Shown piece after piece: positions 11,186 through 51,501 of a stretch of DNA of 64,000 nt. Both the position numbers and the translations under genes were made by a program. Every line of letters starts with the position of its first letter. Position 1 is the stretch's first letter. The notes beneath the pieces are model-generated. The model ran no database searches, had not been told where the DNA came from, and saw only the letters and a list, made by a program, of their open reading frames with translations. The DNA lies in the IMG/VR virus record IMGVR_UViG_3300010389_003143, positions 16,059 to 80,058 of that record, one strand, 5' to 3'. Origin of the DNA: a virus.

Positions 11186-11233
11186 TTATTTTCCTTTCTA
11201 CGAATAATTATGGTTTAAACAGAGGTTGGCAAA

Positions 11234-11856: not shown

Positions 11857-11904
11857 AGTGACCCCGCATAATATAAGTACTAAATTTAAAATATTTTTAA
11901 ATTT

Positions 11905-14900: not shown

Positions 14901-15255
14901 CAGGAAGGCGATTCCAATTAGAACCATCGAAATAAATGACATCGCCCTGTACACCTGTTATTTCTGCTGCAGCACCAAGGTTGTCGAATATAGCAATGCT
15001 GCCAGCTGTGCCAGTATGAGCGCTAACCGTCCAGCCCAAATTGGTCAGAGAGGCGTGATTTAGAGTGCCTCCAGCAGCAGCAAGAGCCCATACGGTCCCT
15101 CCTTGACCTATATAAAGGTTGCCAAGTGCATCTAAAAACAAGCTTCCAGCATTTGCGGAGATGATCCCATTCGGATTGCCGCTGCCAGTTAATATTTCGG
15201 TTGAATTGCTATTGTTATCTAGCGTTACTTTGTTTATGCTGAAGTTTGTTGCCAT
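11905..15255 (-). CDS. Tail fibre/spike protein with pectin-lyase-like beta-helix
   Basis: 1116 aa, Gly/Ala/Thr/Ser-rich; GQFLQTQGAGADPQW fibre motif; VYVDAVEGDD...PFLTIAAAI...GDTIMIRPGTY beta-helix start. Confidence 0.75.
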   Translation of the reverse strand: MATNFSINKVTLDNNSNSTEILTGSGNPNGIISANAGSLFLDALGNLYIGQGGTVWALAAAGGTLNHASLTNLGWTVSAHTGTAGSIAIFDNLGAAAEITGVQGDVIYFDGSNWNRLPAGTSGQFLQTQGAGADPQWAASSGEQVKVSANDTTAGYLFDKIITATAGVAFTEINDGADEDLRLDINSASTSGQGLIEIATQAEVNAGVSTSLAVVPASLANATTVARSLQTAYDLGNIIVTAGSTNIGFALNSGGLNIQGSDFVTIGSTTEVSSFSVFSSGTVTAQGRDTFLIDMQANDAANKTLTISASNAGAGSGNIAISADGISVSSDTFGLDFTTSAIITDSAVGEGLKYAADYSSTFIDESLVTKRFVDDGFVAINQVNGVVYVDAVEGDDGTGAAYRTDKPFLTIAAAISASAAGDTIMIRPGTYAEWGITVPANRTVRGEGSWQTVTVGSTAATSDVFTIATDVTITDLTIQLATAAHDGISFTGVAATDTGGIYNLRFLGDGVSGAARGIYKDGPGKIIGAEIRWDLGGFDAGMQSDGGTIALESLHFPPSAGSINAAARGFDSGRLQLADMNVGNSNVVYGLDADATNSPTLNTLAPTILVYGVNFFNLENAVRINCDGAFIGLYAGKVQDQFFDFVINPGCDGFNAAGTRTAVQSTAALQSKFNFPFAALASDFALNYLQEETATNRAASILLGGDLVAGFPELGSNFWSGTGRPYNLGATFLTTDNTASPVSNGANFVDETIALSSTSGSTATFQGSTAGHSILWTVSRQDVSGNYLKYFGYEIAQDVAGVGGEYVFEIQTAANTWTEVSVEALSKMENYRYSSSVFIRGSSEENIIMGIDGTAWPSTTINGVVGRWARVRIVTAVTTLPTFEQIKLISTSTNLNDNGYRSVFGLAQWTRSVSAVGNVFSESGSVTNSTTLVGTGAGSWTHVIQNSDLDNTTKFVDTQIIIPNGICTAYPLFVSIYYYTKEASGGGGGTSAVTAPCEFMVDAIAKEVTGILVADPAGGIAPIARTYASTELINTGTPFSQTQNASNIGDIIAQGGGNDNRTRKLTFGPIPIDNYYEGDVVYFRGIITNQGAPSQAVIILGVDIEGTAFSDGRPIE

Positions 15256-26583: not shown

Positions 26584-27548
26584 TCTCCGTCCATTCCTGA
26601 GGCATTATAGTCGGTTACACGTTTCTCGAAGAAGTTGCTCATAGTGTCTCCATTGAGAACCCAGTCTAGCCAAGGTAGGGGATTTTCTTTAACACCATAA
26701 TTTGGCTTTAGACCAAGCTGAATAAGCCTACGATCAGCAATATATCTGATGTACTGCTTCATTTCATCCGCAGTTAGGCCTTCGACCGGCCCTACAGCGT
26801 AAGCTAAATCGATAACTTTGTCCTCAAGCTTAACGGCAGTCTTGTACATCTCATAAATAGACTTTTTAAACTCATCATTAACAACTCTTGGGTGTTCTTC
26901 ACAGAATGTGCGGAAAAGCTTTGACATATATTGGACGTGAATGGTCTCGTCTCTTACTGACCACTCAACGATAGTACACATGCCCTTCATTTTTCCAAAT
27001 CTTTGGTAATTTAGAAGCATAACAAAAGCAGAAAAAAGAGACATACCCTCATTGCAAACAGATTGAGCCAGAGATAGCCCGATTCCTCTTTTTGAGGAAA
27101 CATTTGTGCTCTGCATGAACTCAAGCTTTTCAGCCATCTGCTCATATTCGAGAAAAGCCCAATATTCTTTTTCCTCAAGGCCCAGGGTATCATTCAAAAG
27201 AGCATAAGCACGCTGGTGAGTGCCCTCTCTATTTGCAAAGCTAAGCAGCATATTTCTTATTTCGTTATTTTTGAAAACAGGAATAAATAAGTCACAATAA
27301 TTTCCTCCGACCTGTACGTCAGTCTGAGTAAATAACCTTAAGATTTGGGTAATATGCTCTTTTTCGTGATGAGTAAGGGCCTTGCTCTTCCATTGGTTTA
27401 CATCCTCCTGTAATTCGGCCTCCCAGGTGCCCCAGTGAACCTTTTCATGGGCCTCCGCAGCCTCCATAGCCCATGGGTACTGAAATGGCTTGTAGGCCTC
27501 AGATGAATTTAGTAATCCGCCCCTATTTATCCCTGACATGATAGACAT
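26571..27548 (-). CDS. nrdB: Ribonucleotide reductase class Ia beta subunit
   Basis: YKPFQYPW, FTQTD, REGTHQRAY (Tyr radical), EGMSLFSAF, RDETIH, NFFE. Confidence 0.95.
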   Translation of the reverse strand: MSIMSGINRGGLLNSSEAYKPFQYPWAMEAAEAHEKVHWGTWEAELQEDVNQWKSKALTHHEKEHITQILRLFTQTDVQVGGNYCDLFIPVFKNNEIRNMLLSFANREGTHQRAYALLNDTLGLEEKEYWAFLEYEQMAEKLEFMQSTNVSSKRGIGLSLAQSVCNEGMSLFSAFVMLLNYQRFGKMKGMCTIVEWSVRDETIHVQYMSKLFRTFCEEHPRVVNDEFKKSIYEMYKTAVKLEDKVIDLAYAVGPVEGLTADEMKQYIRYIADRRLIQLGLKPNYGVKENPLPWLDWVLNGDTMSNFFEKRVTDYNASGMDGEWGW

Positions 27549-30244
27549 TCTCCTTCTTCTTCTGCATAATCCGCTAACGCAACTCTCTCTACTTTTGCCG
27601 AAACCTTCTCTGGATCAACTCCGGCATTTGTTCTTAGATAATAAAGCGCTTTCAGACCCATTTTCCAAGCTTTAATATGGGTCATTAGAACGTAGTTCTT
27701 ATTGGACCCAGCTGGGAAGAATAGATTTACGCTCTGCCCCTGGCATATAAATTCCTGTCTTCCACCAGCATGCTCAACAACCCATCTCTGGTCTAGCTCA
27801 AAAGCCGTCTTGAAAACAGATCTTTCCCAGTCGCTAAGAAAGTCAAGATGTTGAACAGACCCTTGATTGAGGATTACGGAATTCCAAGCTTCTTCCTTTT
27901 CTTTTTCGTCTAGATAGTTATCAAAGACCTTATCTAGCTCGGGGTTCTTTACCAAAAATGATCCAGCCCTTGTTCTGTGAGTATAGGCGTTTGACTTCCA
28001 AGGCTCAATTGACGGACTTGTGGCTAATATAATAGAGCTATTTGCATTAGGGGCTATAGCAAGAAGATGTGCGTTTCTTACTCCGCTTTCGGGGCCGTCT
28101 GGATAAGCTCCCTTTTCATCGGCAAGCCTTCTGGTCTCTTCTGTCGCTCTTTCTTTAATATCGCTAAATATAGAAGAATTCATAGCTGTAGCCATAGCGC
28201 TTTCCCACGGTATTCCGTTTCTCTGAAGAAGATCGTGGAAGCCCATTGCTCCAAGGCCGATGCTCCTCTCTCCTCTGGCTCCATTTACAGCCCTCCAAAG
28301 CTCCTTTGGAGCATTCTCGATAAATACGTCCAAAACGTTATCGAGCATTCTTACTAGGTCCTGAACAATCTTGGTGTCTTTCCACTCATCCCATTTTGCA
28401 AGATTTAGACTGCTCAGGCAGCATACGGCAGTCCTATCAGCCGCCGTAGGCAAAAATATTTCAGAGCACAAGTTTGAGCCATTTATTCTTAGATCCAAAT
28501 CTTTAAGCTCTTTTGGAAGATGCTTATTTGAGGTGTCTATAAAATGAAGATAAGGTTCGCCGGTTCGGTATCTTGTTTCGATAATCCTCTGAAGAAGCTC
28601 TCTTGCACCTAGGGTATCTCTAACTGTTCCATCCGCAGGGTCTACGAGGTTCCAGTCTTCATTTGCTATAGCTGCCTTCATGAAATCGTCAGTTATATTT
28701 ACAGCATTATGCAAATTAAAACACTTTCTATTTGGATCACCGCCAGTTGGAATTCTCATTTGTAAAAATTCAACAATATCAGGGTGTGAGATATCTAGGT
28801 AAGCAGCATATGAGCCCTTCCTGGTATTTCCACAGACTAGAGATCTACCGTTACTTCTTACTAGCAGTTTGCCTTCTGGAACTAATGCACAGTAAACATA
28901 TCCATCATAAGGGACCTCTTCCTTCCTAACCCTTTGAGTTGTGAAATGGTTTTTGTTTGAGACTACAACATAAAAAGAATTTTTTCTTGGATATTCTCTC
29001 TGCTGCTCTTTAATTCTAGCTCTTTTGCCAGCTAAAGTAGCTGCAGTAAAGACAGTATCAGCGCATGCTTTGCTTACTGATGAATATGTAAAGTTTGTTG
29101 CCCTCTTACTTGAGTCCCAATTAGATACTTCATCCAAGAAGCTCGTAAGCCATTCATAACTTCTTGTTTCTGGCCTTACCCAAGAGAGGTCTTTTGACTC
29201 CCAAGCATAGTTGGGGACATCGGGGATATTTCTTACATCGCTGACTTTCACCCTGATTGTGCAAGTTCCATCATTTCTATAAATAAGATTATAGCTATAG
29301 TTAGACTCTCTAACTATTCTGAGCAACCTATCGATCTTTCTCTGCTTCTTAAAATGAAACTCAATAGACTTACCGTTATAATTAGTTCCATCAGCCTGAA
29401 AGGCGACAAGAAGTCTGTCTGAATTTGAAAAACTTTCTTTATTATTATTTTTAATTTTTCCAGAAAAAGCCATTCTCACTTCAGAGTGTGATGGAAGCAT
29501 ATCAGCCCTTACTTTTTGAAGATCGTCATTCCAGCCACCCTTGGTCTTTCTGTCTATAACCATTGAGTGATTTGGAGTTACCATAATATCAACATTTTTT
29601 TCATCCACTACACGGATAAGGTTGCCATTATGATATTCTCTTACAAGCTCTATCGGCTTGACAAACGACACTTCGCCCCTGGAGGTTACCTGCGCGACCT
29701 TATCATGGTCGGTTAGTTCGGAAAACTTAATGTAGCCTTTGTCCGTCAATACCTCAACATCAGGGTGGTAACACTTGCCCTGGCGATAAGCATTCATATC
29801 TGCGTCAACTGTTTTTAGGAATGGAATTGGTCCGGGTGACTTTTCCGAAACAGAGCGAACTGATGACCAGTGGCCACCGACCCCGCCTCCCTTGACAGAT
29901 AGCCATCTAAGCTCTGAGGAATGCTCTATAAGGCCCTCAAGGGTGTCGTCGACCCAGGTAAGGAAGCAGCTTATCGGAAGCGCCCTCCAGGCCTCTCCGG
30001 GCTTTGGAGCATTGCTCAGAACGGGGGAGGCAAACATGAACCAGCCCTTGCTTGCGTAATCATAAATTCTTTGGGCAAAACGAAGGTCGCCGTCGCAATA
30101 AGCGAGAGCTGCTCTACCAAACGCCTCCTGGGGCGAGGTTTCTTCGTTCAGCATGTAGTACTGTTTTAACAGGGTTTTTGAAAAATCATTTAAATTATCA
30201 TCTCTGTCGAAATCCAGCAGGATTCCGCCGTACTCAGTGCTCAT
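27527..30244 (-). CDS. nrdA: Ribonucleotide reductase class Ia alpha subunit, intein-containing, no ATP cone
   Basis: PISCF, GGGVG, SNLCSEI (catalytic Cys), AIAPNANS, C-terminal CLSC. Confidence 0.96.
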   Translation of the reverse strand: MSTEYGGILLDFDRDDNLNDFSKTLLKQYYMLNEETSPQEAFGRAALAYCDGDLRFAQRIYDYASKGWFMFASPVLSNAPKPGEAWRALPISCFLTWVDDTLEGLIEHSSELRWLSVKGGGVGGHWSSVRSVSEKSPGPIPFLKTVDADMNAYRQGKCYHPDVEVLTDKGYIKFSELTDHDKVAQVTSRGEVSFVKPIELVREYHNGNLIRVVDEKNVDIMVTPNHSMVIDRKTKGGWNDDLQKVRADMLPSHSEVRMAFSGKIKNNNKESFSNSDRLLVAFQADGTNYNGKSIEFHFKKQRKIDRLLRIVRESNYSYNLIYRNDGTCTIRVKVSDVRNIPDVPNYAWESKDLSWVRPETRSYEWLTSFLDEVSNWDSSKRATNFTYSSVSKACADTVFTAATLAGKRARIKEQQREYPRKNSFYVVVSNKNHFTTQRVRKEEVPYDGYVYCALVPEGKLLVRSNGRSLVCGNTRKGSYAAYLDISHPDIVEFLQMRIPTGGDPNRKCFNLHNAVNITDDFMKAAIANEDWNLVDPADGTVRDTLGARELLQRIIETRYRTGEPYLHFIDTSNKHLPKELKDLDLRINGSNLCSEIFLPTAADRTAVCCLSSLNLAKWDEWKDTKIVQDLVRMLDNVLDVFIENAPKELWRAVNGARGERSIGLGAMGFHDLLQRNGIPWESAMATAMNSSIFSDIKERATEETRRLADEKGAYPDGPESGVRNAHLLAIAPNANSSIILATSPSIEPWKSNAYTHRTRAGSFLVKNPELDKVFDNYLDEKEKEEAWNSVILNQGSVQHLDFLSDWERSVFKTAFELDQRWVVEHAGGRQEFICQGQSVNLFFPAGSNKNYVLMTHIKAWKMGLKALYYLRTNAGVDPEKVSAKVERVALADYAEEEGECLSCQG
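28826..29773 (-). mobile_element. Intein in NrdA (316 aa), degenerate LAGLIDADG
   Basis: YRQGK|CYHPDVEVLT...GRSLVCGN|TRKGS; excision restores RQGKTRKGS; LVAFQADG block. Confidence 0.9.
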
Positions 30245-30611
30245 TTATTTCCCCAATTTTCATCTTTAAATTTTTCGTTTTAGCTGAAGCGATCGTGGCT
30301 AAAGATTTATGCATGAAAATTGTTTCGACAATAATTTTTAAGTCTCTTCTACACAACTTCTTACTTACCTTTAACCACTTAAACTTGCAAAAAAATTGTT
30401 ACGAATTTATTCGTTCCAAAGAAATCTGCGTACTTAAGCCTTCCATTTTAATAGATTTTCAGACCTTACATTAGAGGGCTTGCTTTAGAATCTTATTGTT
30501 TTTCTTTTGTTTTATATATTCTTTTGAGCATCTAAAAAAAAAATAATTTTTTATTAAATTTACAAAATCTCATAGATCCATTCGATGCTTAAAAGCCTGA
30601 TTTGAACTGAC

Positions 30612-30643
30612 AAAAACGGCCCGAGCATTTTGTAGCCCGAGCC
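30612..30643 (-). terminator. Rho-independent terminator after the DAC gene
   Basis: Minus strand GGCUCGGGC-UACAAAAU-GCUCGGGCC (9-bp stem, two GU pairs) followed by GUUUUU. Confidence 0.7.
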
Positions 30644-30672
30644 ATCTCAAATTATGAAAGTTAGCTGATCAG

Positions 30673-31239
30673 CTATTCATCTGACGGATCAAACTGCTCT
30701 ACGAATGTGCCATTCTTCCAGGTTCTCACTACTGCAGTTTCTTCAGATAGCGTGAATACCGCTATAATATCTTCTCGCGTAGAAAAAGATGCAGCACTAA
30801 TATGCCTTGTGCCGCAGCCATCGGGTACATCAAGAGATGAGTCATCAACTACCAGGTAAATCTTTGATCCAATTATTTGACCGTTTCTATTAACGATTAT
30901 AGCGCCGTCAGCACCTTCGTTCAACATAGAGAAGACATCTTTCGTAAAAGCATCCTCACATATGTTTATGTACTTCTGTATAGGATTTACCCCTATCTGC
31001 CTCATGCCAGGAACCATGTGATCGTCAGATTTGTCGAAAACTCCAAGAACAATTATAAGTCCAATATTTCTATTTTCATTAAAGTTATTTCTAGATATTT
31101 GGGACAATAGCGTGAATATACTTTTTTCTACTTTTTGGAAATCTCTTGCAGCATTAAACTGATATGAGAAATCTATGCTAGAGATTTTTCTAGAAAATTC
31201 TGGCTTGCTGACTTTTGCGGTCTCCAAGTCATTACTCAT
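30673..31239 (-). CDS. Diadenylate cyclase (DisA_N/DAC domain) protein
   Basis: DGAIIV motif, GTRHISAA (RHR-like) and LSEET; stand-alone domain; AGGGGAAGG RBS. Confidence 0.8.
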   Translation of the reverse strand: MSNDLETAKVSKPEFSRKISSIDFSYQFNAARDFQKVEKSIFTLLSQISRNNFNENRNIGLIIVLGVFDKSDDHMVPGMRQIGVNPIQKYINICEDAFTKDVFSMLNEGADGAIIVNRNGQIIGSKIYLVVDDSSLDVPDGCGTRHISAASFSTREDIIAVFTLSEETAVVRTWKNGTFVEQFDPSDE

Positions 31240-31258
31240 GACCTTCCCCTGGTTTATT

Positions 31259-33745
31259 TTAGTTGCTAAAACCTAATTCATCATAGGTGTAATTTATAAT
31301 AAAACCAGAATCATCTATTGTCTCTAGATTTAGCGGAGATCTCCAGGCCTCATATATGTATTCCATAACTTTCTCTGCATGGGTTACATCTAAGGTTCCT
31401 ATATTTTTTGAAACATGGTCAAGTTGCAAAAAGCCATCTTCAATACCCGTTATAGCTATAAGCGGTGCCCTATAATTATAAAGATCCTTCGTAAGCGATT
31501 CAACAACGCTATTTAGGTCTGTTCCGGTTATGTGAATGCCCCGATCTCCGCCAGGAGTCTGGATATCCTTATAACTAAACAGCTTAAGCTCTTGTGCCAA
31601 CTCTTTTGTTAAATAATTTCTAATAAAGGATATATCGTCTTCCGTTTCTACAACTTTATAGACTTTCTCTAGCCCAGTCAGGCTTGAGGTGCCCTCCTCA
31701 TGGAATCGGTCCCACCTTTCCTTTATATCTGTAAATATCTTAAAGCCTAAGAAATACGGGTTTATATTTAAGCTATTTCTTCCTGGCTGCACGACCTTTT
31801 CGTGAAGTCCACAGAAATCTAGATGCTCTCCATGATTTATACATTCCAAATCAGACATTAAGTAAGCGTGAACAAAGCTTGCAAATCCTTCGTTCATTAT
31901 CTTTGTCATGTACTGCGGATAGAAGTAATAAGTTTCTTCCCTTATGATTTCAAGAATGTCTACCTGCCATGACTCAAGGCTATTTGAATAATTAATCAAG
32001 AACCATAGTATATCCTTTTCCGGATTGGGAGGAAATCTATTCTTTGGCACAACCATTTTTTTCGACATGGACTTTTCGTCCAGCAGGTCCGAGAACTCAT
32101 CTTTTGCCACAGTCTTAAAGTACTTTTTCTTTCTTGGGTATTTGCTGCGCCTTAGACCTTTGTGCCAGTCTATATGCTTATCCAGAGCAAAGCCAATATC
32201 CATAATTCTTTCGACAGCGTCTATTCCGTATTTCTGAATATATTCCTCTATTCTTTGCGCTCTTTCTGCGGCATGGTAGACCATCTTATTATCAGTTTTC
32301 TTAAATAAATAATTATTTTTAAAGAAATGACAGTTGTGAGCTATCATTCCATTGTCAATAACAAAACTGTGATCTTCTTCAACTTCTATATCATAGACTG
32401 GGACCTCTTCGAGTAACTCGACTCTTCTTGCCATAGTCACTTTTGAAAATAGATGCTCATCGGTCTGCTCTGAAAAAGACCAAGTGCGATTTATCTCTTT
32501 CTCAAAATTGATATCGCAAATTTCAAGAAGCTTTCTGTGAGCCTTCCCATGTACACTTAAATCATAACAGGTTTTTCTGCCCTTCCGACTCCTGGACTTT
32601 ATGCTTGCTTTAATTCCAAAATCTTTAAGAATGGACTTTGTCTTATAAGCCAGCTCACTACTTGTTGTGGTAAAGCTTGACTGGTATTTATCGCCCTTAA
32701 TATGGCCATCACCCTCGAATAGGCCTCTAATCATGCCTATCATAAAATCTCTTGGAGTATCCGGGTCTGCTGCAAAATTTGGAATAAATTTATTATTGGA
32801 GTGCCGACCACACTCTTTCTCAAGGAACATTCCAAATGACTTGTCATACACCATAACTCTCCTTGAAGAGTCAGACTCTCTTATGGTGACTCCGGTGTTT
32901 ATGCCCAACTTTTCAAACCAGTTCTGAATAAAGTCCGAATATGAGGCTTCATCTTTATGTAGCGAAAATGCAAAAGATGTATTGTTACGACTTCCTTCTG
33001 CTATATATAATCCAATTATTCTGCCAAAATCGCAGTCTAAATCAACCTGATATCCGCCAAACTTATTGGCCAACTCCTTCTTCCATCTAGGTGTTGGTCT
33101 TGATACTTCTATGGGAATAAGTATGCTCTTTTTATTTTTGCTATATGATATCTTTGGAGTTATCACCAAATCGTTTTCGGTAACGTCTTTTGCTTCGCAC
33201 CAGAACATCATATTGTCACGCTTAATCAAAAGTCTATGCTCGGGGGTGCATCGCGATGGGCTTTCCTCTCCCTTTACTCGAATCTCAACCAGATCCTTTG
33301 TTTTTTTGGTTTCCCTTGACTCGATAACTTGGCGGTATCGACCTTTGTGAGTTAAAACCATATCTCCTGGAACTATACTCTTTATGTCTACGAACCCCCT
33401 CGTTGTCTCGACCCTTGTGTCTCCGACAAAGCAGTGCCCAATTACGTGAGCTATGACCATAGTATTTGCTATATCAGAGTTTGTATCCAGCAAGAATGCA
33501 TAGGACGGGTTGTTATTCAAAACAACCTCATAAACCTTGGAAAAGCCCATTTCTCCTTGCATCTTCTGATAATCATAGGATTGGCCGTAACTCCAGTGCC
33601 TAGCCCTTGTTGGTAGTCCATAGCTGATAACCTCAAGCATTGTATCTTGAGATACAACCTCGTAATTTATCGGATAAGGGTCGAGATTCATATCTTCGGC
33701 CATCTTTTCCAAGATTTTTATTCTTTCAGTTAGGACCTTGTTCAT
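31259..33745 (-). CDS. spoVR: SpoVR/YcgB family protein, intein-containing
   Basis: GLPTR..HWSYG..Y, YEVVLNNNPSYAFL, AHVIGH|CHFFKNN, IIREE.YYFYPQ..TKIMNEGFAS, NPY.LG. Confidence 0.92.
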   Translation of the reverse strand: MNKVLTERIKILEKMAEDMNLDPYPINYEVVSQDTMLEVISYGLPTRARHWSYGQSYDYQKMQGEMGFSKVYEVVLNNNPSYAFLLDTNSDIANTMVIAHVIGHCFVGDTRVETTRGFVDIKSIVPGDMVLTHKGRYRQVIESRETKKTKDLVEIRVKGEESPSRCTPEHRLLIKRDNMMFWCEAKDVTENDLVITPKISYSKNKKSILIPIEVSRPTPRWKKELANKFGGYQVDLDCDFGRIIGLYIAEGSRNNTSFAFSLHKDEASYSDFIQNWFEKLGINTGVTIRESDSSRRVMVYDKSFGMFLEKECGRHSNNKFIPNFAADPDTPRDFMIGMIRGLFEGDGHIKGDKYQSSFTTTSSELAYKTKSILKDFGIKASIKSRSRKGRKTCYDLSVHGKAHRKLLEICDINFEKEINRTWSFSEQTDEHLFSKVTMARRVELLEEVPVYDIEVEEDHSFVIDNGMIAHNCHFFKNNYLFKKTDNKMVYHAAERAQRIEEYIQKYGIDAVERIMDIGFALDKHIDWHKGLRRSKYPRKKKYFKTVAKDEFSDLLDEKSMSKKMVVPKNRFPPNPEKDILWFLINYSNSLESWQVDILEIIREETYYFYPQYMTKIMNEGFASFVHAYLMSDLECINHGEHLDFCGLHEKVVQPGRNSLNINPYFLGFKIFTDIKERWDRFHEEGTSSLTGLEKVYKVVETEDDISFIRNYLTKELAQELKLFSYKDIQTPGGDRGIHITGTDLNSVVESLTKDLYNYRAPLIAITGIEDGFLQLDHVSKNIGTLDVTHAEKVMEYIYEAWRSPLNLETIDDSGFIINYTYDELGFSN
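32333..33433 (-). mobile_element. Intein in SpoVR (367 aa) with LAGLIDADG endonuclease
   Basis: GH|CFVGDTRVET...TPEHR...IGLYIAEGS...IRGLFEGDGH...VYDIEVEEDHSF...IAHN|C. Confidence 0.93.
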
Positions 33746-34932
33746 TTTTTAACCTCTTTGTATGCTCTTCCATCTATGTTAAAGAATAACTTTAACGCAT
33801 CAAAAACTTCATCCTTAGATGATATCCTCATTGAAACGAATCTTGTTCTCTTTATTTCACCCTCTAGCATATAAGAGAGTTTCTTATCATCCGTCCCCCA
33901 AGAATATGAATCGCCAAGGTCTATTTCTCCATACCCTATTGCTCTGACCATCGGCAGCATTTTTTTAACGTAATCAATGACGAGCATGTTGTCATTAAAC
34001 CAGTTGTCGCCGTCGCTGAACTCAAAAACATAATTATTCCACTGATCAGCAGGGTGATGCTCACTCATATGCTCGTAGGCAAGCTTAAAGGCCGAAGAAC
34101 ACTTTGTGCCCCCAGAGCCGCTCATACTAAAGAATTCTTTTTCAGTTGTAGTAAATGCACTTACATCATGGGCGATAAAAACAAGTGATATATTTTTATA
34201 TCGCCTCTTAAGAAACTGAACCATCCAGAAATAAAAGCTCTTTGCAATAAAGACTTTATCTTGTGTCATGGAGCCACTGATGTCCATCATAAGATAAACC
34301 GCAGCGTTTGATAAATACTCTTTATTTACCTCATAATGGCGATACCTTAAATCGTCTTCATTGATTCCGCCGATTTTCGCCTCACCTTTTGCAGCGTTTC
34401 TCTTTAGGTTTTGAATTAAAGTCTTTTTTAGATCTAGATTTGGATAAATACCCTTTTTATTTATAGAGGAAAGCTCCTCTGTCTCTATCTCTATAAAAGA
34501 AGACTTCTCCGGCTCCATCCATGGGAGATTTAGCTCATCCATAAGGATCTCAACAAGCTCATCTATGGTGACTTCTGCATCATAGAAGACCTCGCCCTCT
34601 TTGTCGCCTGCCTTATCTCCTTTTCCCTTTCCTTTCTTCTTTTTATTTATCCTAAATTTATCACCGCCCTTGACATCGAGGCCTTGGCCTGTGCCTGAGC
34701 TGTTATTTAGCTTTCCGTACTTAAACTTATACCTATCGAGAAATCTAATCGGCACCTTTATCTTTTTATCGCCATCGGACGTAATGATATTGTGCTCAGT
34801 GATTAAGTCCTTTCCGTTTTTGCGTATAGCATCGTTTACAAGCTTTTTGTGCCTCTCAGAGTCTCTCTTGCCCCTTTGCTTTAGCTTCCAAATATCGGAA
34901 AGATTTTCACGCGATTTCGGAGAGCCAGACAT
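33742..34932 (-). CDS. yeaH: YeaH/YhbH (DUF444) vWA-domain protein
   Basis: RG.RD..RH, MMDISGSM (MIDAS), FIAH, SGGTKCSSA, FSDGDN. Confidence 0.92.
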   Translation of the reverse strand: MSGSPKSRENLSDIWKLKQRGKRDSERHKKLVNDAIRKNGKDLITEHNIITSDGDKKIKVPIRFLDRYKFKYGKLNNSSGTGQGLDVKGGDKFRINKKKKGKGKGDKAGDKEGEVFYDAEVTIDELVEILMDELNLPWMEPEKSSFIEIETEELSSINKKGIYPNLDLKKTLIQNLKRNAAKGEAKIGGINEDDLRYRHYEVNKEYLSNAAVYLMMDISGSMTQDKVFIAKSFYFWMVQFLKRRYKNISLVFIAHDVSAFTTTEKEFFSMSGSGGTKCSSAFKLAYEHMSEHHPADQWNNYVFEFSDGDNWFNDNMLVIDYVKKMLPMVRAIGYGEIDLGDSYSWGTDDKKLSYMLEGEIKRTRFVSMRISSKDEVFDALKLFFNIDGRAYKEVKK

Positions 34933-34934
34933 TA

Positions 34935-37900
34935 TTAATTCCTTGCCATTAAGGAGCTTACGTATCTGAGAAGCTTGTTTGCGCTTTCTGCGTTGTATCC
35001 ATGCTTATCGCATAGAGTCTGCACAACTACGTTTACTCTCTTTAGCTCTTCTTCGTCGGGGTTTCTGGCAGATACGGTTAGTCGAATGACATCCTGCCTC
35101 TCATCGAATAGCTGCTTCTGAAGGGCCTCTCTGAGCTTTGCGTGCTCTCTGTAGTCATAAGCGCCACCATTTGTTCTGGCGGACTTAAGCATCTTTCTGT
35201 AGATCTCCTGGCGGAATGAGTTTTTGCCAGACTCAGTAATCCCAACCTTCTCTTCGATTGAGCGCATCAGCCTCTCATTCGGAGGAGAATACTCGCCCCA
35301 TTCGTCCTCAATCTTTGCTCCATCGAGGTAAGCGCCGACATGATCCATGTAGTTGGACAGAAGGTTCTGAATCTCAGACTCGAAGTTTACGAAGAATGCC
35401 TTCTGGACCTCATTTCTGGCAATCTTAGAATACTCCTCGATAACTGTCGTAAGGATATTGTCCAGGCGGTCAATCTCCTCCTTATCGAGCTTCGGATTTG
35501 AACTAAAGCCATCTCTAATTGCTCTGATTGCATCGATAGGAGTGAGGCAGCTGGTTCCGTCTTGAGCTAGAGCTGATGAAAGCCTATTTATAATGTATCT
35601 CGGAGAAACACCGCCCATGCCCTCTGCCTCAAATTCTTTCTTGAGAGTTGGTACATCGGATTGAGAGAATCCGTCGACCTCCTCTCCATCATAAAGCTTC
35701 ATCTTGTTTAGCTGAGTTAGGCCATTATTCTTAGAATCCTTAAGTCTAGATAGAATTGCGAACATTGCTGCGCAATGCAGCGTGTAAGGCGCTATATGTA
35801 CGTTCTTGAACATAGCCTGGCCGATAAGCTTCTCGTAGATCCTTACTTCCTCTGATACCTCAAGGTTATAGGGAACCTTTACGACAATAATTCTGTCATG
35901 AAGGGCTTCCATTTCGTCCTTTGCTAGGAAACGCTTATACTCGGTCTCGTTAGTGTTATGGCAAAGAACCTGCCCTATACCTGCGACGAATGAGTGATTT
36001 CCTTCACATGCAATGTCGAATACTTCTAGTGACTCTACATATAGAGATTCTATTTTATTTACACCAGCATTTGTATTCTTTAGCCTAAAACGGATACCGT
36101 AGGCATCTTTTCCAGTTGTCGTGTAACCATGATAAATCGAGTAATCCTTACCCAGAATAGAGGATATAAATCCAACTTGGGAGGCAAGCATCTTTGAAGT
36201 AGTTTTGTATCTAAAGAAGTTTTCCTCATACTCTTCACTTGCATTATCAAAGTAGAAGTTTGTGGAGCCATCACCTTTTACTAATTCGTCTAAGAAAAAT
36301 GTTAGCATCTCATTGCTTAGATTGAATACAAAGTTCGGAACCTTCTTGCCATCGGAGTATTTGCCGCAGTTTAGCTCCAAGAGGTCTTTCCATATCTTGG
36401 TTGACAAATGAAGTCTGCTTGTTCTATCTTTTTTATCGCTTCTGTCCTGAAGAGAAGATGTGGAGGTGCTAATTCTTTCGGACGCAGACTTTATGAGGCT
36501 AAGCTCGTTTAATGACTGCTGACTAATAATGGCATGAGCGCTATTTACATGTCCCTCAGTAATATACCATGCCATAGTTTTTAGCAAATCTTTTACATCT
36601 TGAGTGTCCTTAAGATTGTATCTAACTTTAACTTTATTTTTTCTAAATTGGCCATTACCCTTATATCCTTCGATATCCTTTATTCTGGCATAGCCATCAT
36701 CATCAACTTCCATATCTTCTGATAGCTCCAAGGTAAAGCTCTCTGCAACTTCAATTAGCGGAGCTTCTCTTAGGGCGCAAACATCTAGTTTATCCTCGGG
36801 ATAGAATGGCTCAAGATCATCAGAGTAAATAGAGTGATTATACGTAGTTTCTACAACTCCATTTTTTTGAATAGTTTTAATTAGATTTCCAGTAAATGGA
36901 TGGCTATAAAAATTCTTTACCTTTGTCCATTCAAATTCTTTTGTATTTAAATTCATGGCAATAACTTCAATGTTAGTATCGCCCGCCCTAGCTAGATCTG
37001 CGATTGTATCAAACTTTACTAGTCCATCTTTTCTATAGGGAACAGGCTCATCGCCAACAATACTATGAGCTAGCAAAAACTCGTCAGCATAAATGAACGG
37101 AAATCTGCCAGTTTTAATATTTTTCTCTTGAGCAAGGGTCAGGAGAACATAAAGGAACTTCTGATCGACTTTGAGCATCTCAACGAACTCCATGATGCCT
37201 CTATTCGCTACGTTCAGCTCTCCATCAAAGCGGTAGGCTCTGGGGTCTGACTCAGAACCGAATTCGCCAATCTTGCTCAAGTCCATTGAGCCTACAAGCT
37301 CGGATACATCCTGACTCTTCTTGTCTGATGGAACAAACGTTCCCACTCCTATTCTGGACTGCTCTGAGAAGAACATTCTTTCTACAGGCAGCTTAAGAAA
37401 GTCTCCATCATACTTTTCCTTTAGGATAAGGTCCATGTAAGGAGAAAGCTTTCCATCAATCTTTATGCCATAATCGTCAAAGAACTTCTGCCTTAGTGAT
37501 TCGGGGATAGCAGTAAGCGGATCCTCATACATTGGAGACTCTGATAAGCAGTAGGTCTGGCCCTCATCCGTCTTGGCGAACTTCTCAAGACCTCTCTTCA
37601 GGGAGACGGCTAGCTGGGACTTTCCGGAAGAAGTGGGTCCGTATAGCAGAAGGATTCTTCTGGAAACCTCAGACCCGGCGGAAGCAGCCTTTAGGTAGGA
37701 CATAATCTCTGTAAGCGATTCATCTATTCCGAAAAGATCCTGGTCAAAGAAGTTGTATTTCGTGATATTGCCATCCTCATCGCGCTCGATGCCTTGGGAC
37801 TCAATCATTCTCAGAACTCTGGTGTGAGAACTCATATGAATTTCTGGATTTTCCGTAACCATGCCAATATAGTCAGCAAGAGTCCCGCTCCAGTTTAGTG

Positions 37901-37964
37901 AACTTTCTTCGTCAACATGATTTTCTAATAGCTTTAGAAGATTTGTTTTCTTAGATTGAGGCAT
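34935..37964 (-). CDS. prkA: PrkA/YeaG family AAA+ protein, intein-containing
   Basis: LLYGPTSSGKS (Walker A), SDPRAYRFDGELNVANRGIMEFVEMLK, AH|TNE, EGMGGVSPRY. Confidence 0.93.
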   Translation of the reverse strand: MPQSKKTNLLKLLENHVDEESSLNWSGTLADYIGMVTENPEIHMSSHTRVLRMIESQGIERDEDGNITKYNFFDQDLFGIDESLTEIMSYLKAASAGSEVSRRILLLYGPTSSGKSQLAVSLKRGLEKFAKTDEGQTYCLSESPMYEDPLTAIPESLRQKFFDDYGIKIDGKLSPYMDLILKEKYDGDFLKLPVERMFFSEQSRIGVGTFVPSDKKSQDVSELVGSMDLSKIGEFGSESDPRAYRFDGELNVANRGIMEFVEMLKVDQKFLYVLLTLAQEKNIKTGRFPFIYADEFLLAHSIVGDEPVPYRKDGLVKFDTIADLARAGDTNIEVIAMNLNTKEFEWTKVKNFYSHPFTGNLIKTIQKNGVVETTYNHSIYSDDLEPFYPEDKLDVCALREAPLIEVAESFTLELSEDMEVDDDGYARIKDIEGYKGNGQFRKNKVKVRYNLKDTQDVKDLLKTMAWYITEGHVNSAHAIISQQSLNELSLIKSASERISTSTSSLQDRSDKKDRTSRLHLSTKIWKDLLELNCGKYSDGKKVPNFVFNLSNEMLTFFLDELVKGDGSTNFYFDNASEEYEENFFRYKTTSKMLASQVGFISSILGKDYSIYHGYTTTGKDAYGIRFRLKNTNAGVNKIESLYVESLEVFDIACEGNHSFVAGIGQVLCHNTNETEYKRFLAKDEMEALHDRIIVVKVPYNLEVSEEVRIYEKLIGQAMFKNVHIAPYTLHCAAMFAILSRLKDSKNNGLTQLNKMKLYDGEEVDGFSQSDVPTLKKEFEAEGMGGVSPRYIINRLSSALAQDGTSCLTPIDAIRAIRDGFSSNPKLDKEEIDRLDNILTTVIEEYSKIARNEVQKAFFVNFESEIQNLLSNYMDHVGAYLDGAKIEDEWGEYSPPNERLMRSIEEKVGITESGKNSFRQEIYRKMLKSARTNGGAYDYREHAKLREALQKQLFDERQDVIRLTVSARNPDEEELKRVNVVVQTLCDKHGYNAESANKLLRYVSSLMARN
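35955..37064 (-). mobile_element. Intein in PrkA (370 aa), Ser1 type, LAGLIDADG
   Basis: LAH|SIVGDEPV...TTYNHS...AWYITEGH...LDELVKGDGS...VFDIACEGNHSF...CHN|TNE. Confidence 0.9.
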
Positions 37965-37967
37965 GAT

Positions 37968-38255
37968 TTAGTTTTCTCCATATATATTTCTAATTGTTCT
38001 CGAATCACCGGACCTAACTTTATTAGCAATTTTTTTGGCTTCTTCTTTTATCTCGCTAATAATTGTTTCTTTATCCTTTTTTATCTTACTAGATAAAGTG
38101 CCAAATGTTTGAGTGAATTCGCAAATATCGTTGCATTTATTACACTCTATTTTTTTAAAATGACCAGAATTTTTCAGCTCTAAATAGAGGGCTATAGAAA
38201 AGCTGTATTCCACCTCTTCTGAGCAATTAGTGCAAGAATATCTGTATTTAGCCAC
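37968..38255 (-). CDS. FmdB-like zinc-ribbon protein
   Basis: MAKYRYSCTNC...CNKC; ends 3 nt before the prkA start. Confidence 0.65.
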   Translation of the reverse strand: MAKYRYSCTNCSEEVEYSFSIALYLELKNSGHFKKIECNKCNDICEFTQTFGTLSSKIKKDKETIISEIKEEAKKIANKVRSGDSRTIRNIYGEN

Positions 38256-38441
38256 CTACTCTTCCTCTTCTGAATTATATATTACGATATCTTTTTCTAC
38301 TTTTAGCTTGCCAGCTAAAGAAAAATCTCTTAATATTTTCTTTTTAAATTTCGCGTCGGTAACCCTAATTGTTATCTCTAGGTCATTAGACTTTGGGTTG
38401 TATAGAAAGTTTTTTATCTTACCTATTTCTTTTTCCGTCAT
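38256..38441 (-). CDS. Hypothetical protein
   Basis: Tightly packed in the operon. Confidence 0.55.
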   Translation of the reverse strand: MTEKEIGKIKNFLYNPKSNDLEITIRVTDAKFKKKILRDFSLAGKLKVEKDIVIYNSEEEE

Positions 38442-38766
38442 AAAGCGACTCTATTGCTGTTTTGATATGAGGGTTGTCTATTTCATTCAAAAGAAATAGC
38501 AGATCTGTTTGAGGCAGTTTTTCTATTTTAGCAATTGATGACAGTGGCACATGCAATATAAAGCTAGGCTTTTCACCTGCAGATAATCCTTCAAAATCAT
38601 CGCTAATCGGCACAACTGCAAGTGAGTCATCTTTCATGCTAATGCTATTTACTATATATTTTTTAGAAATATCTGCATATATTGTTTTTAAAATAATTAA
38701 GTCATTTTTGCGAATAGATTCGATGTTATATTTCATTTTCATCACCAAAATCTTCCGCCCAGTCAT
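38419..38766 (-). CDS. Hypothetical protein
   Basis: Tightly packed in the operon; true start probably a downstream Met. Confidence 0.5.
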   Translation of the reverse strand: MTGRKILVMKMKYNIESIRKNDLIILKTIYADISKKYIVNSISMKDDSLAVVPISDDFEGLSAGEKPSFILHVPLSSIAKIEKLPQTDLLFLLNEIDNPHIKTAIESLYDGKRNR

Positions 38767-40093
38767 CCGGCATATCTTCTATTCTAGAGTTTGGAAATAC
38801 CTTTCTTAGCGATACTTTGCCCTTCGCACCGTCTCGGTTTTTAACTATATGGATCTCCATATCTTCGCGAAGGCGCTCGTCTTCCCTGTTGGCTATTATA
38901 AACACGACCGCAGCGTTATCTCCAATCATTTTTGAGCGTCCAAGATCTTCGAGAGAGACATCGTCAAGCTTTTTGCCGCCGGTCTTTTTCTGCTGAGCCT
39001 TTCTTTGCGCCGCAGTTACAACTGGAATATTCTTTTTCCTGCAAAACTCATGAAGCTCCTCTGACACTCGGCCTACATCTAGCCAATCTGATCCAACCTG
39101 ACCTATCGTGGGCTTCATTAGCTGCAGGTAATCCACGAATACAGCATCTGGCTTGAAAACTCCAAGAAGATTTTCATACTTAGCCTCGATCTCCCCCATT
39201 GTTGTTCCGCGAGGCATGTCCAGAACGTAAAATACTTTATCATAATCTTTTTGAAAATCTAAATTAGCAAGCCATCTCTTTTCTTCTACGTCGGTAAGCT
39301 GCGCTCTTGCGATGCCTCTGTGTCTTACATTTGCCACATTTGCATCCACCCTTTGCTCTAGCTGCTTTTTGCTCATCTCAAGAGATATATAAAGAACATT
39401 TTTTCCATCGTTGAATCCGGTAACGCCCTCAGACGGGACGTTGCTTCCAAGCCATGCATTAATTGCCATGTTCATCATCAACATTGACTTACCAGAAGAG
39501 CTTGCGCCGCCAATTACAAGCATCTCAGAGTTTTTAATGCCCCAGGTGTAATCATCCAGCTCTTTGTAACCAGATAGAAAACCTCTAATTTCATCCGGGT
39601 TCTCCATCGTATATTTATAGTCGTCCACTCTTGAGTCAACGGACTGAGTTACGTTGCCCTCGGTAAAAACGTCAGATTTATAGAGCCTTTCTGTTTTGGA
39701 TATTATCCTTTTTAGCTCATCGTTGTAGTCGACCAACGATTCATAATCCGAATCCAGCTCTTCTGCTTTTTCTGCAAGACGATCGATTAGATATTTGTTA
39801 TATCTTTCTTTTATTCGATCAATATAGAAGCCTATTTCATTAGCGCTACAACTTTCACCTCTGATAAAGTCTATTATTTCGGTCTCTTCCTCTTCTGCAT
39901 CAAGAAGCTTTTCCAGAACCTCATACGATGGAGGACTCTTGTGTCTGGAGTAATAAGAGTGAATTTGAAGTGTAGCAGGCTTAAAGCTTGGGAGGACAAC
40001 CAGCTTCAAGAGATCAAACTCTATCTGCATATAAACATCATTTACATTGGATGATCCCTTGAGCATCCAATTTAAAATTTTGGCATCATGCAT
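38726..40093 (-). CDS. dnaB: Replicative DnaB-like helicase
   Basis: GGASSSGKS, ISLEMS, VDYLQL, TAAQ, IVKNRDG. Confidence 0.92.
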   Translation of the reverse strand: MHDAKILNWMLKGSSNVNDVYMQIEFDLLKLVVLPSFKPATLQIHSYYSRHKSPPSYEVLEKLLDAEEEETEIIDFIRGESCSANEIGFYIDRIKERYNKYLIDRLAEKAEELDSDYESLVDYNDELKRIISKTERLYKSDVFTEGNVTQSVDSRVDDYKYTMENPDEIRGFLSGYKELDDYTWGIKNSEMLVIGGASSSGKSMLMMNMAINAWLGSNVPSEGVTGFNDGKNVLYISLEMSKKQLEQRVDANVANVRHRGIARAQLTDVEEKRWLANLDFQKDYDKVFYVLDMPRGTTMGEIEAKYENLLGVFKPDAVFVDYLQLMKPTIGQVGSDWLDVGRVSEELHEFCRKKNIPVVTAAQRKAQQKKTGGKKLDDVSLEDLGRSKMIGDNAAVVFIIANREDERLREDMEIHIVKNRDGAKGKVSLRKVFPNSRIEDMPDDWAEDFGDENEI

Positions 40094-40764
40094 TATTTTC
40101 TCCGATAATCTTTGCCGCCAACGATAAACACGTCGACATGTCGTGACCTAAGTGATTTGAAAGATTTTGCGAAGAACCCCCCAAATATAGAATCTAAGTC
40201 ATTATCATTTGAGCATAATATGGTCGGCAATTGGTTCTGGAACCTTGTTCGCAAAACATACTCAAGAGAAGTACCAAATAGCTGCTCGGCCTTCTCGGAT
40301 GGAAAAATCCAATGAGATGAAAATTCATCTATAACGAGAAAGTCCTTGCCGATGAGTTCCTCATAGTATTTCGAGGTATCCATCTGGCTGGATAGCATGT
40401 TTGCAACAACATCCGCCATAGTTGTGTATAGTGCCGAATACCTATTTGCTATCGCAAGTTTTAATATGCAACATGCGGTATAGGTCTTCCCGGTACCAAG
40501 ATTTCCTGCAAAGATTAGCGACTTACCTGCATCATATAGGGCGTCTATATCTTCTATTCTTTGCTTTATCGTTCTCTTAAAGTTTGGGTCACCCTCAAAG
40601 TCCTTGAAAGACTTCGACCAATACTCTACCGGAATATTCGCGGAACAATATTTGTCTAGTCTTGCGGATTTTGCCTCGCACCTTATGCAACCATCTCCTG
40701 AACAGGCGGTACAAGACTCCTTAACCTGCTCTTTTTTTCTCTCAATCTTTTTCCTCGGAATCAC
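40093..40764 (-). CDS. DnaC/IstB-like helicase-loader ATPase
   Basis: Zn finger CTAC...CIRC; GNLGTGKT; LVIDEF; R...LPTILCSN; adjacent to dnaB. Confidence 0.85.
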   Translation of the reverse strand: MIPRKKIERKKEQVKESCTACSGDGCIRCEAKSARLDKYCSANIPVEYWSKSFKDFEGDPNFKRTIKQRIEDIDALYDAGKSLIFAGNLGTGKTYTACCILKLAIANRYSALYTTMADVVANMLSSQMDTSKYYEELIGKDFLVIDEFSSHWIFPSEKAEQLFGTSLEYVLRTRFQNQLPTILCSNDNDLDSIFGGFFAKSFKSLRSRHVDVFIVGGKDYRRK

Positions 40765-49734: not shown

Positions 49735-51501
49735 TTAGTGCGGAAGCATTCCGCACTCTCTCATAGCATGAATAGTCATAGGGAAATCTCCCTGTTCCTC
49801 TACAAGTCTTAGCATCTCTGCTGCAACCTGACGAACTTCAAGCTGAGCATGCTCATCGTTTCTTAGTTTTTGAAAATGAGCAAAAGATCGCCAATTAAAC
49901 ATAATATCACAGGTAATTTGAATGCCATAAGGAAGATAAAACCTTGCGCTTTCCTTTGCCCGCTTTCTACTATAGCCAGCTTCTTCAAGCCTGGCAATAC
50001 AACTGTGATAATTTTCATAAGCCTGCCTTATAAAGGCTTCTAAGTTTTCTCGCTCAGATTCAGGCCAATCAACAGGGAGGTAATATTTATCTATCTTAAA
50101 CTCCTTATATCTCGCTGATTCTGCATTACAATTGTGTATTAGAAAGCCATTTGCAACATAGTTATGGGTCCCATCTACCTCTAGATCATAAACATCCTGC
50201 ACTCCGAGATACTCTACGCTAACTATCTGCTCATAGTCAAATGCCAGACGCCGCCCTTTTCTTGGCTTTCTTTTTTTAAAGACCTCTTTAACGTCCTCCT
50301 TCAAAAAACTTTGGGCAAAGGCTTCCTCTGAGGCGCGAGAGGAATGAATTTTTTTGTGGCAACCCGAACATACAGGGGCAAGATTATTATAATCTGTCGC
50401 CCTAGTCTTATCGACTGATACTGGAATAACATGGTGGCACACAAAATCCCTAGAACACCCTTCTGGGTCAATCTGAGCTTGACAAACATAATTAAATTTA
50501 CTCAAAAGGGCCGGCATCTGCTCTCTTGTCCAGTTTCCAACGGTAGCCCTCCAGATTTTATAATCTAAATCTGGATTTATATTTGGATTTACACCATTCT
50601 TTTGGCGATTCAACTTGTATCCATACTTTCCTTTGTTCCACGGAATATTTCCAGGCTTAAAATCCTTATTCATATCTTTTAGAAAGATTATATCATGTAT
50701 ATATCCCCATTTTTTAATAAGCTCGTATTTATATCCACTTATTTTGGCAACTTCTTTCCTGGTATATTTACCCTCATATTTACCCTCATATTTAGCCCAC
50801 CAATCTCTAAAGGTATATGGCTTTCCAGATACATTTATATTTATCCCGTTTACGGCGACCATATTATCTACATTAGATATGGTCGCCTTAGAACCAAAAA
50901 CTTCTACGCCAAGATACTCTCCAATTTCTACAAAGCCGTCGTCCCGAGAGTAAAACTTGTGATCTAATGTAGTTGATATTGTTCTTCCGGACTTTGTAGT
51001 AAACTTATAAACATCACTCTTACCGTTATAAAAAACCTTTGATATATAGCCTTTTTTTACAAGATTTGAATCATCTTGCTTAGTCCTGCATCGAACCGGC
51101 CTACCATACTGCCTTCTATACTCCTTTCCATTTTTAGACTTCGATAAGATTCCATTCTCATATTGATCATAGAGATCCTTTATCATCACCTTTCTTACTC
51201 CGCCACTGGGCTTTGGAATGTAAATCTCGGTATCACCAGTAACGCAATTCACCCCGGCTCGATGCTTCAAAAGATGAATATGGGTGGCGATATCAGTTGT
51301 AATAAGGAAGTGCAAGGATGATTTCTCAAAGGGTGTGTGATGACCTTCGCGAGCCAGCATATTTAAAAGCTTGCCCATTCTAGCTCGCTTTTTAGGATTT
51401 AAATCACGGCTGGTGCTTGTCCATGCAGAGAGGGCGTGCGTTTCGTCGCTCCCATAAGTTCCCATTAATTCTACGGTATTTTTTGTATTTACTTTGCTCA
51501 T
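49735..51501 (-). CDS. thyX: Flavin-dependent thymidylate synthase, intein-containing
   Basis: GHHTPFE, KHRAGVN|CNAESARY, ARFYLP, NWRSF.HF..LR...HAQLEVR. Confidence 0.92.
   Translation of the reverse strand: MSKVNTKNTVELMGTYGSDETHALSAWTSTSRDLNPKKRARMGKLLNMLAREGHHTPFEKSSLHFLITTDIATHIHLLKHRAGVNCVTGDTEIYIPKPSGGVRKVMIKDLYDQYENGILSKSKNGKEYRRQYGRPVRCRTKQDDSNLVKKGYISKVFYNGKSDVYKFTTKSGRTISTTLDHKFYSRDDGFVEIGEYLGVEVFGSKATISNVDNMVAVNGININVSGKPYTFRDWWAKYEGKYEGKYTRKEVAKISGYKYELIKKWGYIHDIIFLKDMNKDFKPGNIPWNKGKYGYKLNRQKNGVNPNINPDLDYKIWRATVGNWTREQMPALLSKFNYVCQAQIDPEGCSRDFVCHHVIPVSVDKTRATDYNNLAPVCSGCHKKIHSSRASEEAFAQSFLKEDVKEVFKKRKPRKGRRLAFDYEQIVSVEYLGVQDVYDLEVDGTHNYVANGFLIHNCNAESARYKEFKIDKYYLPVDWPESERENLEAFIRQAYENYHSCIARLEEAGYSRKRAKESARFYLPYGIQITCDIMFNWRSFAHFQKLRNDEHAQLEVRQVAAEMLRLVEEQGDFPMTIHAMRECGMLPH
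50131..51246 (-). mobile_element. Intein in ThyX (372 aa) carrying an HNH endonuclease
   Basis: N|CVTGDTEI...TLDHKF...HHVIP...NNLAPVCSGCH...VYDLEVDGTHNYVANGFLIHN|C. Confidence 0.92.

Follow-up and report, generated by a model that had tools for sequence, protein, structure and literature searches.

The genes prkA (yeaG), yhbH (yeaH) and spoVR (ycgB) form a starvation/stationary-phase module in bacteria and haloarchaea, and they are among the most widely conserved prokaryotic gene trios without an agreed biochemical function. In E. coli, YeaG contributes to survival under sustained nitrogen starvation (PMC4664914). Phage annotations have included the trio since 2006 (Thermus phage phiYS40, DQ997624), and genes for a YeaH-like protein, SpoVR and PrkA lie near each other in the Thermus phages phiYS40, TMA, MN1 and Lalka and in the Ralstonia jumbo phage RsoM2USA (PMC8504454). 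Here we analyzed 64,000 nucleotides of viral DNA (hereafter the window; bases 16059–80058 of the 80,058-bp IMG/VR record IMGVR_UViG_3300010389_003143), in which the trio is followed by a gene for a stand-alone diadenylate cyclase (DAC), a probable source of cyclic di-AMP (c-di-AMP). As in the cellular operons, the three families stand in the same order and are tightly coupled, with the Walker A and metal-ion-dependent adhesion site (MIDAS) motifs intact; the phage operon differs from the cellular trio in being virus-encoded, in carrying inteins in PrkA and SpoVR, and in having a Zn-ribbon gene before and the DAC gene after it. The order in the Thermus phages, yeaH-spoVR-(x)-prkA, is unlike that of the present operon, and their YeaH proteins were 29–35% identical to the one encoded here. 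The first-pass annotation of this DNA knew of no description of the four-gene arrangement as a phage system. This held for the cyclase, since our literature search found no paper on a phage-encoded DAC, nor one connecting a DAC to PrkA or SpoVR in phages, but not for the trio, which is annotated in phiYS40, MN1 and RsoM2USA. What is new here is a minimal viral DAC form of a known enzyme class, placed after a phage copy of a known trio.

The block lies on the minus strand, and the open reading frames (ORFs) together with Pfam matches recovered the trio, the DAC and the preceding Zn-ribbon gene where the first-pass annotation had located them. In the direction of transcription, it comprises a 95-aa Zn-ribbon protein as the first gene (37968..38255), a PrkA/YeaG AAA+ protein (34935..37964; 1009 aa encoded), a YeaH/YhbH (DUF444) von Willebrand factor A (vWA) protein (33742..34932; 396 aa), a SpoVR/YcgB protein (31259..33745; 828 aa encoded) and the DAC (30673..31239; 188 aa). 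The Zn-ribbon and PrkA genes are separated by a 3-nt gap; the following junctions, a 2-nt gap between PrkA and YeaH, a 4-nt ATGA overlap between YeaH and SpoVR and a 19-nt gap between SpoVR and DAC, agree with the spacings noted before. An intrinsic-terminator-like hairpin with a U-run (30606..30648, minus strand), likewise anticipated directly after the DAC, lies 25 nt past the DAC stop. Folding revealed a 14-bp hairpin at approximately 30613–30648 on the minus strand, then the U-run, with a minimum free energy of −22.3 kcal/mol and z = −4.53, and 0 of 200 shuffled sequences folded equally well. A simple consensus terminator scan overlooked this same hairpin and detected none at the SpoVR–DAC junction. 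The five genes run head to tail and are probably cotranscribed up to the terminator.

The analysis of related viral loci revealed that the linkage of the trio and the DAC is conserved. All 16 IMG/VR loci found via the DAC, at 50–82% identity, contained the genes for DnaC, DnaB, the Zn-ribbon protein, PrkA, YeaH, SpoVR and DAC in this order; their contigs reach 395 kb, and one of them has terminal repeats. A scan with YeaH added three loci beyond the DAC scan (referred to here as L036, L037 and L040), and the order of trio then DAC was observed in 17 of the 18 loci found via YeaH, with DAC identity down to 42%; L040 was matched by YeaH alone and showed no DAC. The most stable junction of the block was that between SpoVR and the DAC: in 16 of the 17 loci with a DAC, its gene starts within about 50–180 nt of where SpoVR ends. 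In the divergent L037, DnaB was 33%, PrkA 57% and the DAC, which reads RHK, 42% identical to the proteins of the window, so that the module is at least as conserved as the replication genes.

The first-pass annotation had also asked whether the linkage is specific to phages. A scan for the DAC-family motifs across 185,579 species, each represented by one genome, returned a single match, NZCX01000035.1 (L022), an 8231-bp contig in a ‘Candidatus Pacearchaeota’ metagenome-assembled genome. This contig carries DnaC, DnaB, Zn-ribbon, PrkA, YeaH, SpoVR and the first part of the DAC, and this phage synteny at 70–76% identity to the window marks it almost certainly as a piece of a jumbo phage that was misbinned. 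Neither the loci found via the DAC nor the 185,579-species scan placed the DAC family in any other genomic context, and a search of the DAC against a 50,697-record phage collection gave no match. Within the genomes scanned, the trio–DAC linkage is phage-specific. None of the three outcomes named beforehand as counting against the proposal was encountered, namely a DAC inactive or unlinked in related genomes, a block common in bacterial chromosomes and recently acquired, or a cellular contig.

The DAC matched PF02457 with 48.6 bits (cut-off 27). It consists of a variable tail (residues 1–20), an invariant DFS(F/Y)QF motif (23–28), a long helix (24–55) and the DAC domain. The DGA and GTRH motifs mentioned in the first-pass annotation were read as D111-G112-A113 (ADGAIIV) and T144-R145-H146-I147 (GTRHISA), and are accompanied by S165-E166-E167 (TLSEET). 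Comparison of 27 sequences of the family showed that the D and G of the first motif are invariant and the A nearly so, and that GTRHI(S/T)AASFS, TLSEE and DFS(F/Y)QF are invariant. In the AlphaFold2 model, the mean predicted local distance difference test score (pLDDT) was 71.7, and the DFS(F/Y)QF residues scored below 50. A Foldseek search with this model gave 72 matches at E ≤ 0.001 with TM-scores of 0.46–0.69, and those listed were all CdaA, DacA, CdaM or DisA; at the level of the predicted model, the DAC fold is confirmed.

Comparison with named protein models gave the highest score to DacZ (NF041371; 50.6 bits over residues 28–186), followed by CdaA (21), CdaS (18.3) and DisA (16). By profile, the protein belongs to the archaeal DacZ/CdaZ class, and its likeness to DacZ is confined to the catalytic domain: the equivalog cut-off of NF041371 is 430 bits, and profile positions 117–268 of 270 were matched. 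A profile search of 1.84 billion representatives yielded 454 matches, in which the phage family was followed by DacZ-like proteins of 260–450 aa; the two of these traced to organisms were both archaeal (Hydrothermarchaeota and Theionarchaea). In the DacZ-like relatives, the residue after RH is I, V, M, L, A or T, in NCBI-named haloarchaeal DacZ the motif reads GARHM and in PK_C-DAC GARHL, whereas CdaA and DisA have RHR. Haloferax volcanii DacZ and the methanogen PK_C-DAC stand for the class with the best profile match and, like the phage protein, have an RH with a hydrophobic residue after it. The DacZ/CdaZ classes include active cyclases, namely H. volcanii DacZ and M. jannaschii CdaZ (PMC10249747, PMC6741144), and of the RHR motif only a triple RHR-to-AAA mutant has been proven dead (PMC3328451). 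Since RHM and RHL occur in these classes, which appear to tolerate the change, the missing second Arg is probably a class trait and not a defect, and the idea that RHI signals a dead enzyme was set aside after comparison with DacZ and CdaZ proteins.

The phage DAC is distinguished from DacZ/CdaZ by its own invariant DFSFQF motif and by the lack of their N-terminal domain of approximately 115 aa (PF19294, PF21755 or PF02887). Cellular relatives bear PF19294, PF21755, PF02887 or PF00359 beside the DAC domain, and a Pfam search found none of these four in the phage protein. Consisting of a linker helix and a catalytic core with no sensor domain, the phage DAC is most simply read as unregulated, and its sequence suggests that it is probably active in making c-di-AMP and free of such control. 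The short sporulation-specific CdaS of Bacillus resembles it in size (about 190–207 aa), in having N-terminal helices followed by DAC and in lacking a membrane anchor. However, the match to CdaS was very weak, failing the cut-off of NF038328 (18.3 against 225 bits), and the N-terminal region showed no sign of common descent. CdaS reads RHR. A FastTree tree of DAC domains, drawn without support values and for illustration only, placed the short stand-alone DACs apart from the long DacZ-type proteins.

The trio proteins appear complete apart from their inteins. Both PrkA domains passed their cut-offs of 25 bits (PF08298, 376 bits; PF06798, 240.8 bits), and each formed a single contiguous match in the PrkA of an intein-free relative. 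The Walker A motif is intact (GPTSSGKS, residues 109–116), and the protein was 72–87% identical to the homologue without intein in one relative (L006). Global alignment with this homologue delimited a 370-aa insertion at residues 301–670 (35955..37064, minus strand), with a weak Intein_splicing match, which starts with SIVGD (Ser1), ends with CHN before Thr+1, and lies between LLAH and TNE. SpoVR matched PF04293 with 356 bits in two stretches on either side of its own intein, a 367-aa insertion at residues 105–471 (32333..33433, minus strand) with Hint, intein and LAGLIDADG matches (PF14528, 63.6 bits; PF14890, 49.6 bits; PF13403, 29.9 bits). This insertion starts with CFVGD (Cys1), ends with AHN before Cys+1, and interrupts an invariant stretch between AHVIGH and (V/C)HFF. 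From the canonical ends of both inteins, mature proteins of approximately 639 aa (PrkA) and 461 aa (SpoVR) are predicted, and both should be restorable as continuous proteins if splicing proceeds as predicted. SpoVR homologues without intein in the relatives are 460–479 aa long, and the 461-aa one was 75–91% identical.

An alignment of 39 SpoVR sequences revealed invariant residues that include H50, H100, H104, H259 and H281. The invariant His/Glu set also contains E252 among others, and the H100-x3-H104 motif is exactly where the intein is inserted. These residues are consistent with a metal-binding active centre. YeaH matched PF04285 with 274 bits; its MIDAS motif, D217-I-S-G-S221, is intact, and the motif residues were invariant in 8 phage homologues. 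Among the proteins of the cellular trio, it is nearest to the short YhbH type, and its best NCBIfam model was TIGR02877 (spore_yhbH) with 361.7 bits, under the equivalog cut-off of 467.95; by this score it is related to YhbH without being its equivalog. A PDB search revealed a PrkA structure (9xip) that matched the intein-free relative with 436 bits, and no structure for SpoVR or YeaH. After splicing, the operon is thus predicted to encode an intact PrkA AAA+ ATPase, YeaH/YhbH vWA-MIDAS protein and SpoVR/YcgB protein.

The Zn-ribbon protein begins with MxKYxFxCxxC, followed by a second CxxC and a helical tail with IRDIYGE. The cysteines C8, C11, C38 and C41 were invariant and the tail conserved in 11 homologues, each located directly before PrkA. 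Searches revealed no Pfam family at E < 0.01 and only one unrelated weak match in NCBIfam. The conserved pattern MPKYxFxCxxC...CxxC suggests a putative resemblance to FmdB/CxxC_CxxC_SSSS zinc ribbons, to whose family no profile match was obtained.

We favor, at a probability of roughly 0.5, the reading that the operon is a conserved accessory unit in which the cyclase raises c-di-AMP and the trio acts as a remodelling device, the link between them being co-expression in one programme. Free of upstream control once expressed, the DAC would form c-di-AMP by condensing two ATP, and the c-di-AMP level in the infected cell would rise; in cells that use c-di-AMP, K+ and osmolyte uptake would be shut down and central metabolism shifted. 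The trio would work alongside as an ATP-driven AAA+/vWA device for protein remodelling or turnover, and the two together may keep a nutrient-limited host in a condition favorable to a long jumbo-phage infection. Because a virus has retained the trio and conserves it at least as well as its replicative helicase, the module presumably pays off within one infection cycle. Any target of the c-di-AMP would be a host component, since four near-complete relatives showed no c-di-AMP receptor, riboswitch or clear phosphodiesterase. A direct physical or regulatory coupling of the cyclase and the trio may also exist. A complex prediction for one pair only, the intein-free SpoVR with the DAC, scored 0.00, which counts neither for nor against binding.

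Several observations weigh against the reading as a co-expressed unit. The locus L036 contains PrkA-YeaH-SpoVR and then directly the gene for the ribonucleotide reductase (RNR) alpha subunit (11164–15227), and no DAC was found at this site or elsewhere on the 132-kb fragment (30% complete); this represents either a natural loss of the DAC or the state before its gain. In L037 (13239–14955), SpoVR is followed by a YpsA/SLOG gene (167 aa), the DAC and a sigma-70-family gene (216 aa), so that a SLOG gene is interposed between SpoVR and DAC and the immediate neighbors of the DAC differ between branches. The complete genomes of phiYS40 and MN1 contain the trio and no DAC domain anywhere. Synteny extends over the entire stretch between DnaC and RNR, and the adjacency alone may reflect conserved gene order and not shared function. 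In the four near-complete relatives, searches for the c-di-AMP riboswitch (RF00379), for RCK_C (PF02080) and for receptors of the PstA/DarA type (PF06153) found none. In addition, confidence in the DAC model is moderate, and the biochemical role of PrkA is disputed, as purified B. anthracis PrkA with ATPase motifs had negligible kinase and protease activity (PMC13001217).

A looser arrangement is a serious rival, namely that the DAC and the trio are unrelated accessory genes within the syntenic DnaC–RNR block, each acting on the host alone. The conserved order indeed extends over DnaC, DnaB, a 115-aa ORF, Zn-ribbon, trio, DAC and RNR, well beyond the trio–DAC junction, homing-endonuclease genes have been free to insert between the module genes, and the trio occurs without DAC in L036 and in the Thermus phages, while L037 has its SLOG gene before and its sigma factor after the DAC. 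However, such independence sits less easily with the SpoVR–DAC junction being the most stable of the block and only 19 nt long in the window, with a strong hairpin past the DAC where the consensus scan found none before it, and with the absence of the DAC family from any other context found. We regard mere adjacency as a tentative explanation, somewhat on the doubtful side.

In a tighter arrangement, c-di-AMP would act allosterically on PrkA, YeaH or SpoVR, or else the AAA+/vWA pair would stand in for the lost sensor domain in controlling the cyclase, with DFSFQF as a putative docking site. In its favor, the DAC has been stripped of every cis-regulatory domain of its cellular relatives. The best hint is the DFS(F/Y)QF motif itself (23–28), which is kept invariant and yet poorly modelled in the monomer, and the tight linkage and common terminator point the same way. 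AAA+/vWA pairs typically work on a third protein, as in the MoxR-type pairs NorQ-NorD, CobS-CobT and CbbQ-CbbO, where an AAA+ protein stands beside a vWA-MIDAS protein and a possible client (PMC9976466, PMC13036017). The comparison is an analogy only. PrkA has been assigned to another AAA+ clade (clade III; PMC13001217) and carries a kinase-like C-domain, and no client or metal-insertion role is known for it. Against such a machine, the trio of cells, of other phages and of L036 works without a DAC. A DAC is also not known to adjoin cellular prkA operons. An integrated machine of this kind is unlikely in our estimation, and the first-pass annotation’s description of the trio as wired to the cyclase is left unproven by L036, L037 and the other trio phages without DAC. 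The broader claim, that c-di-AMP or the cyclase is a regulator or client of PrkA-YeaH-SpoVR, that the phage has packed the maker of the signal and its effector into a single self-contained cassette which overrides the host starvation programme, and that the DAC is the first virus-encoded c-di-AMP synthase, appears to us rather improbable taken as a whole. The suggested role in sporulation found no support; the trio is widespread in non-sporulators, and a control search with SpoVR matched E. coli, Thermus and Haloferax.

If the DAC is active, phages would also write host second messengers, and not just degrade or sponge them. A viral source of c-di-AMP, which governs turgor, K+ and osmolyte balance, would touch both physiology and defence, and c-di-AMP has lately come to be linked to an immune effector and to phage production. 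In Haloferax, TIR-SAVED senses DacZ-made c-di-AMP, and virus infection raises c-di-AMP (bioRxiv 10.1101/2025.06.19.660554); a second preprint states that the c-di-AMP level influences Listeria phage production (bioRxiv 10.64898/2026.05.13.725036). On these grounds, the DAC could serve in counter-defence, jamming the nucleotide-sensing immunity of the host through a flood of cyclic dinucleotide or by nucleotide binding as a decoy, or could make a product other than c-di-AMP. But in the sole documented case c-di-AMP switches defence on, so its synthesis would hurt the virus; the invariant catalytic motifs speak against a pure binder, and none of the genes in the block was recognized as serving defence or anti-defence. 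We consider this explanation very unlikely. Independent of these alternatives, the phage operon offers a compact system for the study of the trio.

A cellular origin of the block, or its very recent capture from a host chromosome, would fit with the typically cellular nature of all four families and with the IMG/VR tag ‘provirus’ on one 332-kb relative. Yet the first-pass annotation’s view of the contig as phage-borne was borne out. The record, which CheckV rates 24% complete, is classified as viral by IMG/VR and CheckV, and this agrees with the direct terminal repeats of one complete 335-kb relative and with a gene content of inteins, homing endonucleases, PhoH, RNR, ThyX and a tubulin homologue. 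The absence of the DAC family from all the species scanned, apart from the misbinned 8-kb phage contig, and the retention of the block in phages so divergent that DnaB identity has fallen to 33% argue in the same direction, and for practical purposes we exclude that the contig is cellular.

From the CheckV completeness and the record length, a jumbo phage genome of roughly 330 kb is expected. The lineage is one of widespread uncultured aquatic jumbo phages with genomes of about 220–420 kb, the present phage being marine, and it is abundant in marine and other aquatic metagenomes: the DAC sequences form at least 195 clusters at 90% identity, on contigs that reach 328 kb, and for SpoVR there are at least 120 clusters with 53% identity or more. 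Nearly all genes of the window are on the minus strand, and they include those for PhoH, RNR, a thymidylate synthase (ThyX) with an HNH insert, helicases, topoisomerase I and a tubulin-like protein, as well as several inteins. No tRNA genes were detected in the 64-kb window, an Rfam search of the window gave no match at gathering score, and Pfam models for tail sheath and terminase gave nothing or weak matches in the relatives. A bacterial host is suggested by the DnaB/DnaC pair and by the sigma-70 gene that L037 carries.

Upstream of the block and in the same direction, as described in the first-pass annotation, are the genes for a DnaC/IstB-like loader (40093..40764; PF01695) and the DnaB helicase (38726..40093; PF03796). 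Between DnaB and the Zn-ribbon gene lies the 115-aa ORF (38419..38766, minus strand), which is kept in most relatives and has a weak match, below cut-off (E 0.0019), to NARF, the nucleotidyltransferase-associated Rossmannoid fold. Downstream, an AT-rich spacer of about 360 nt separates the terminator from the minus-strand gene for RNR alpha (27527..30244; PF02867, 336 bits; PF00317), which follows the DAC in several relatives as well and is a separate unit past the terminator.

An 801-aa ORF at 56214–58619 (minus strand) contains a glycosyltransferase-like region and a weak tubulin/PhuZ-like match (phrog_2170, phrog_4733). All four near-complete relatives (G001–G004) encode a short adenylosuccinate-synthetase homologue (322–363 aa), which in size and context shows a putative likeness to PurZ of 2-aminoadenine-genome phages. 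In two of them (G001, L041 955–2844; G002, L042 418–2289), this homologue adjoins a 276–289 aa DHH-DHHA1 protein. The DHH-DHHA1 proteins were considered as c-di-AMP phosphodiesterases and not counted as such, as they stand beside the PurA/PurZ-like gene and far from the module.

Selfish elements are unusually many in the window (27527–30244, 31259–37964, 49735–51501 and 53613–56150). Inteins are located in RNR alpha (weak Intein_splicing match, E 0.003), PrkA and SpoVR and probably in one more protein, a helicase, and the HNH insert lies in the thymidylate synthase gene. Among the relatives these elements vary: the PrkA intein is missing from most, SpoVR inteins occur at other sites, and free-standing DUF7487/Vsr-like endonuclease genes are found between the module genes.

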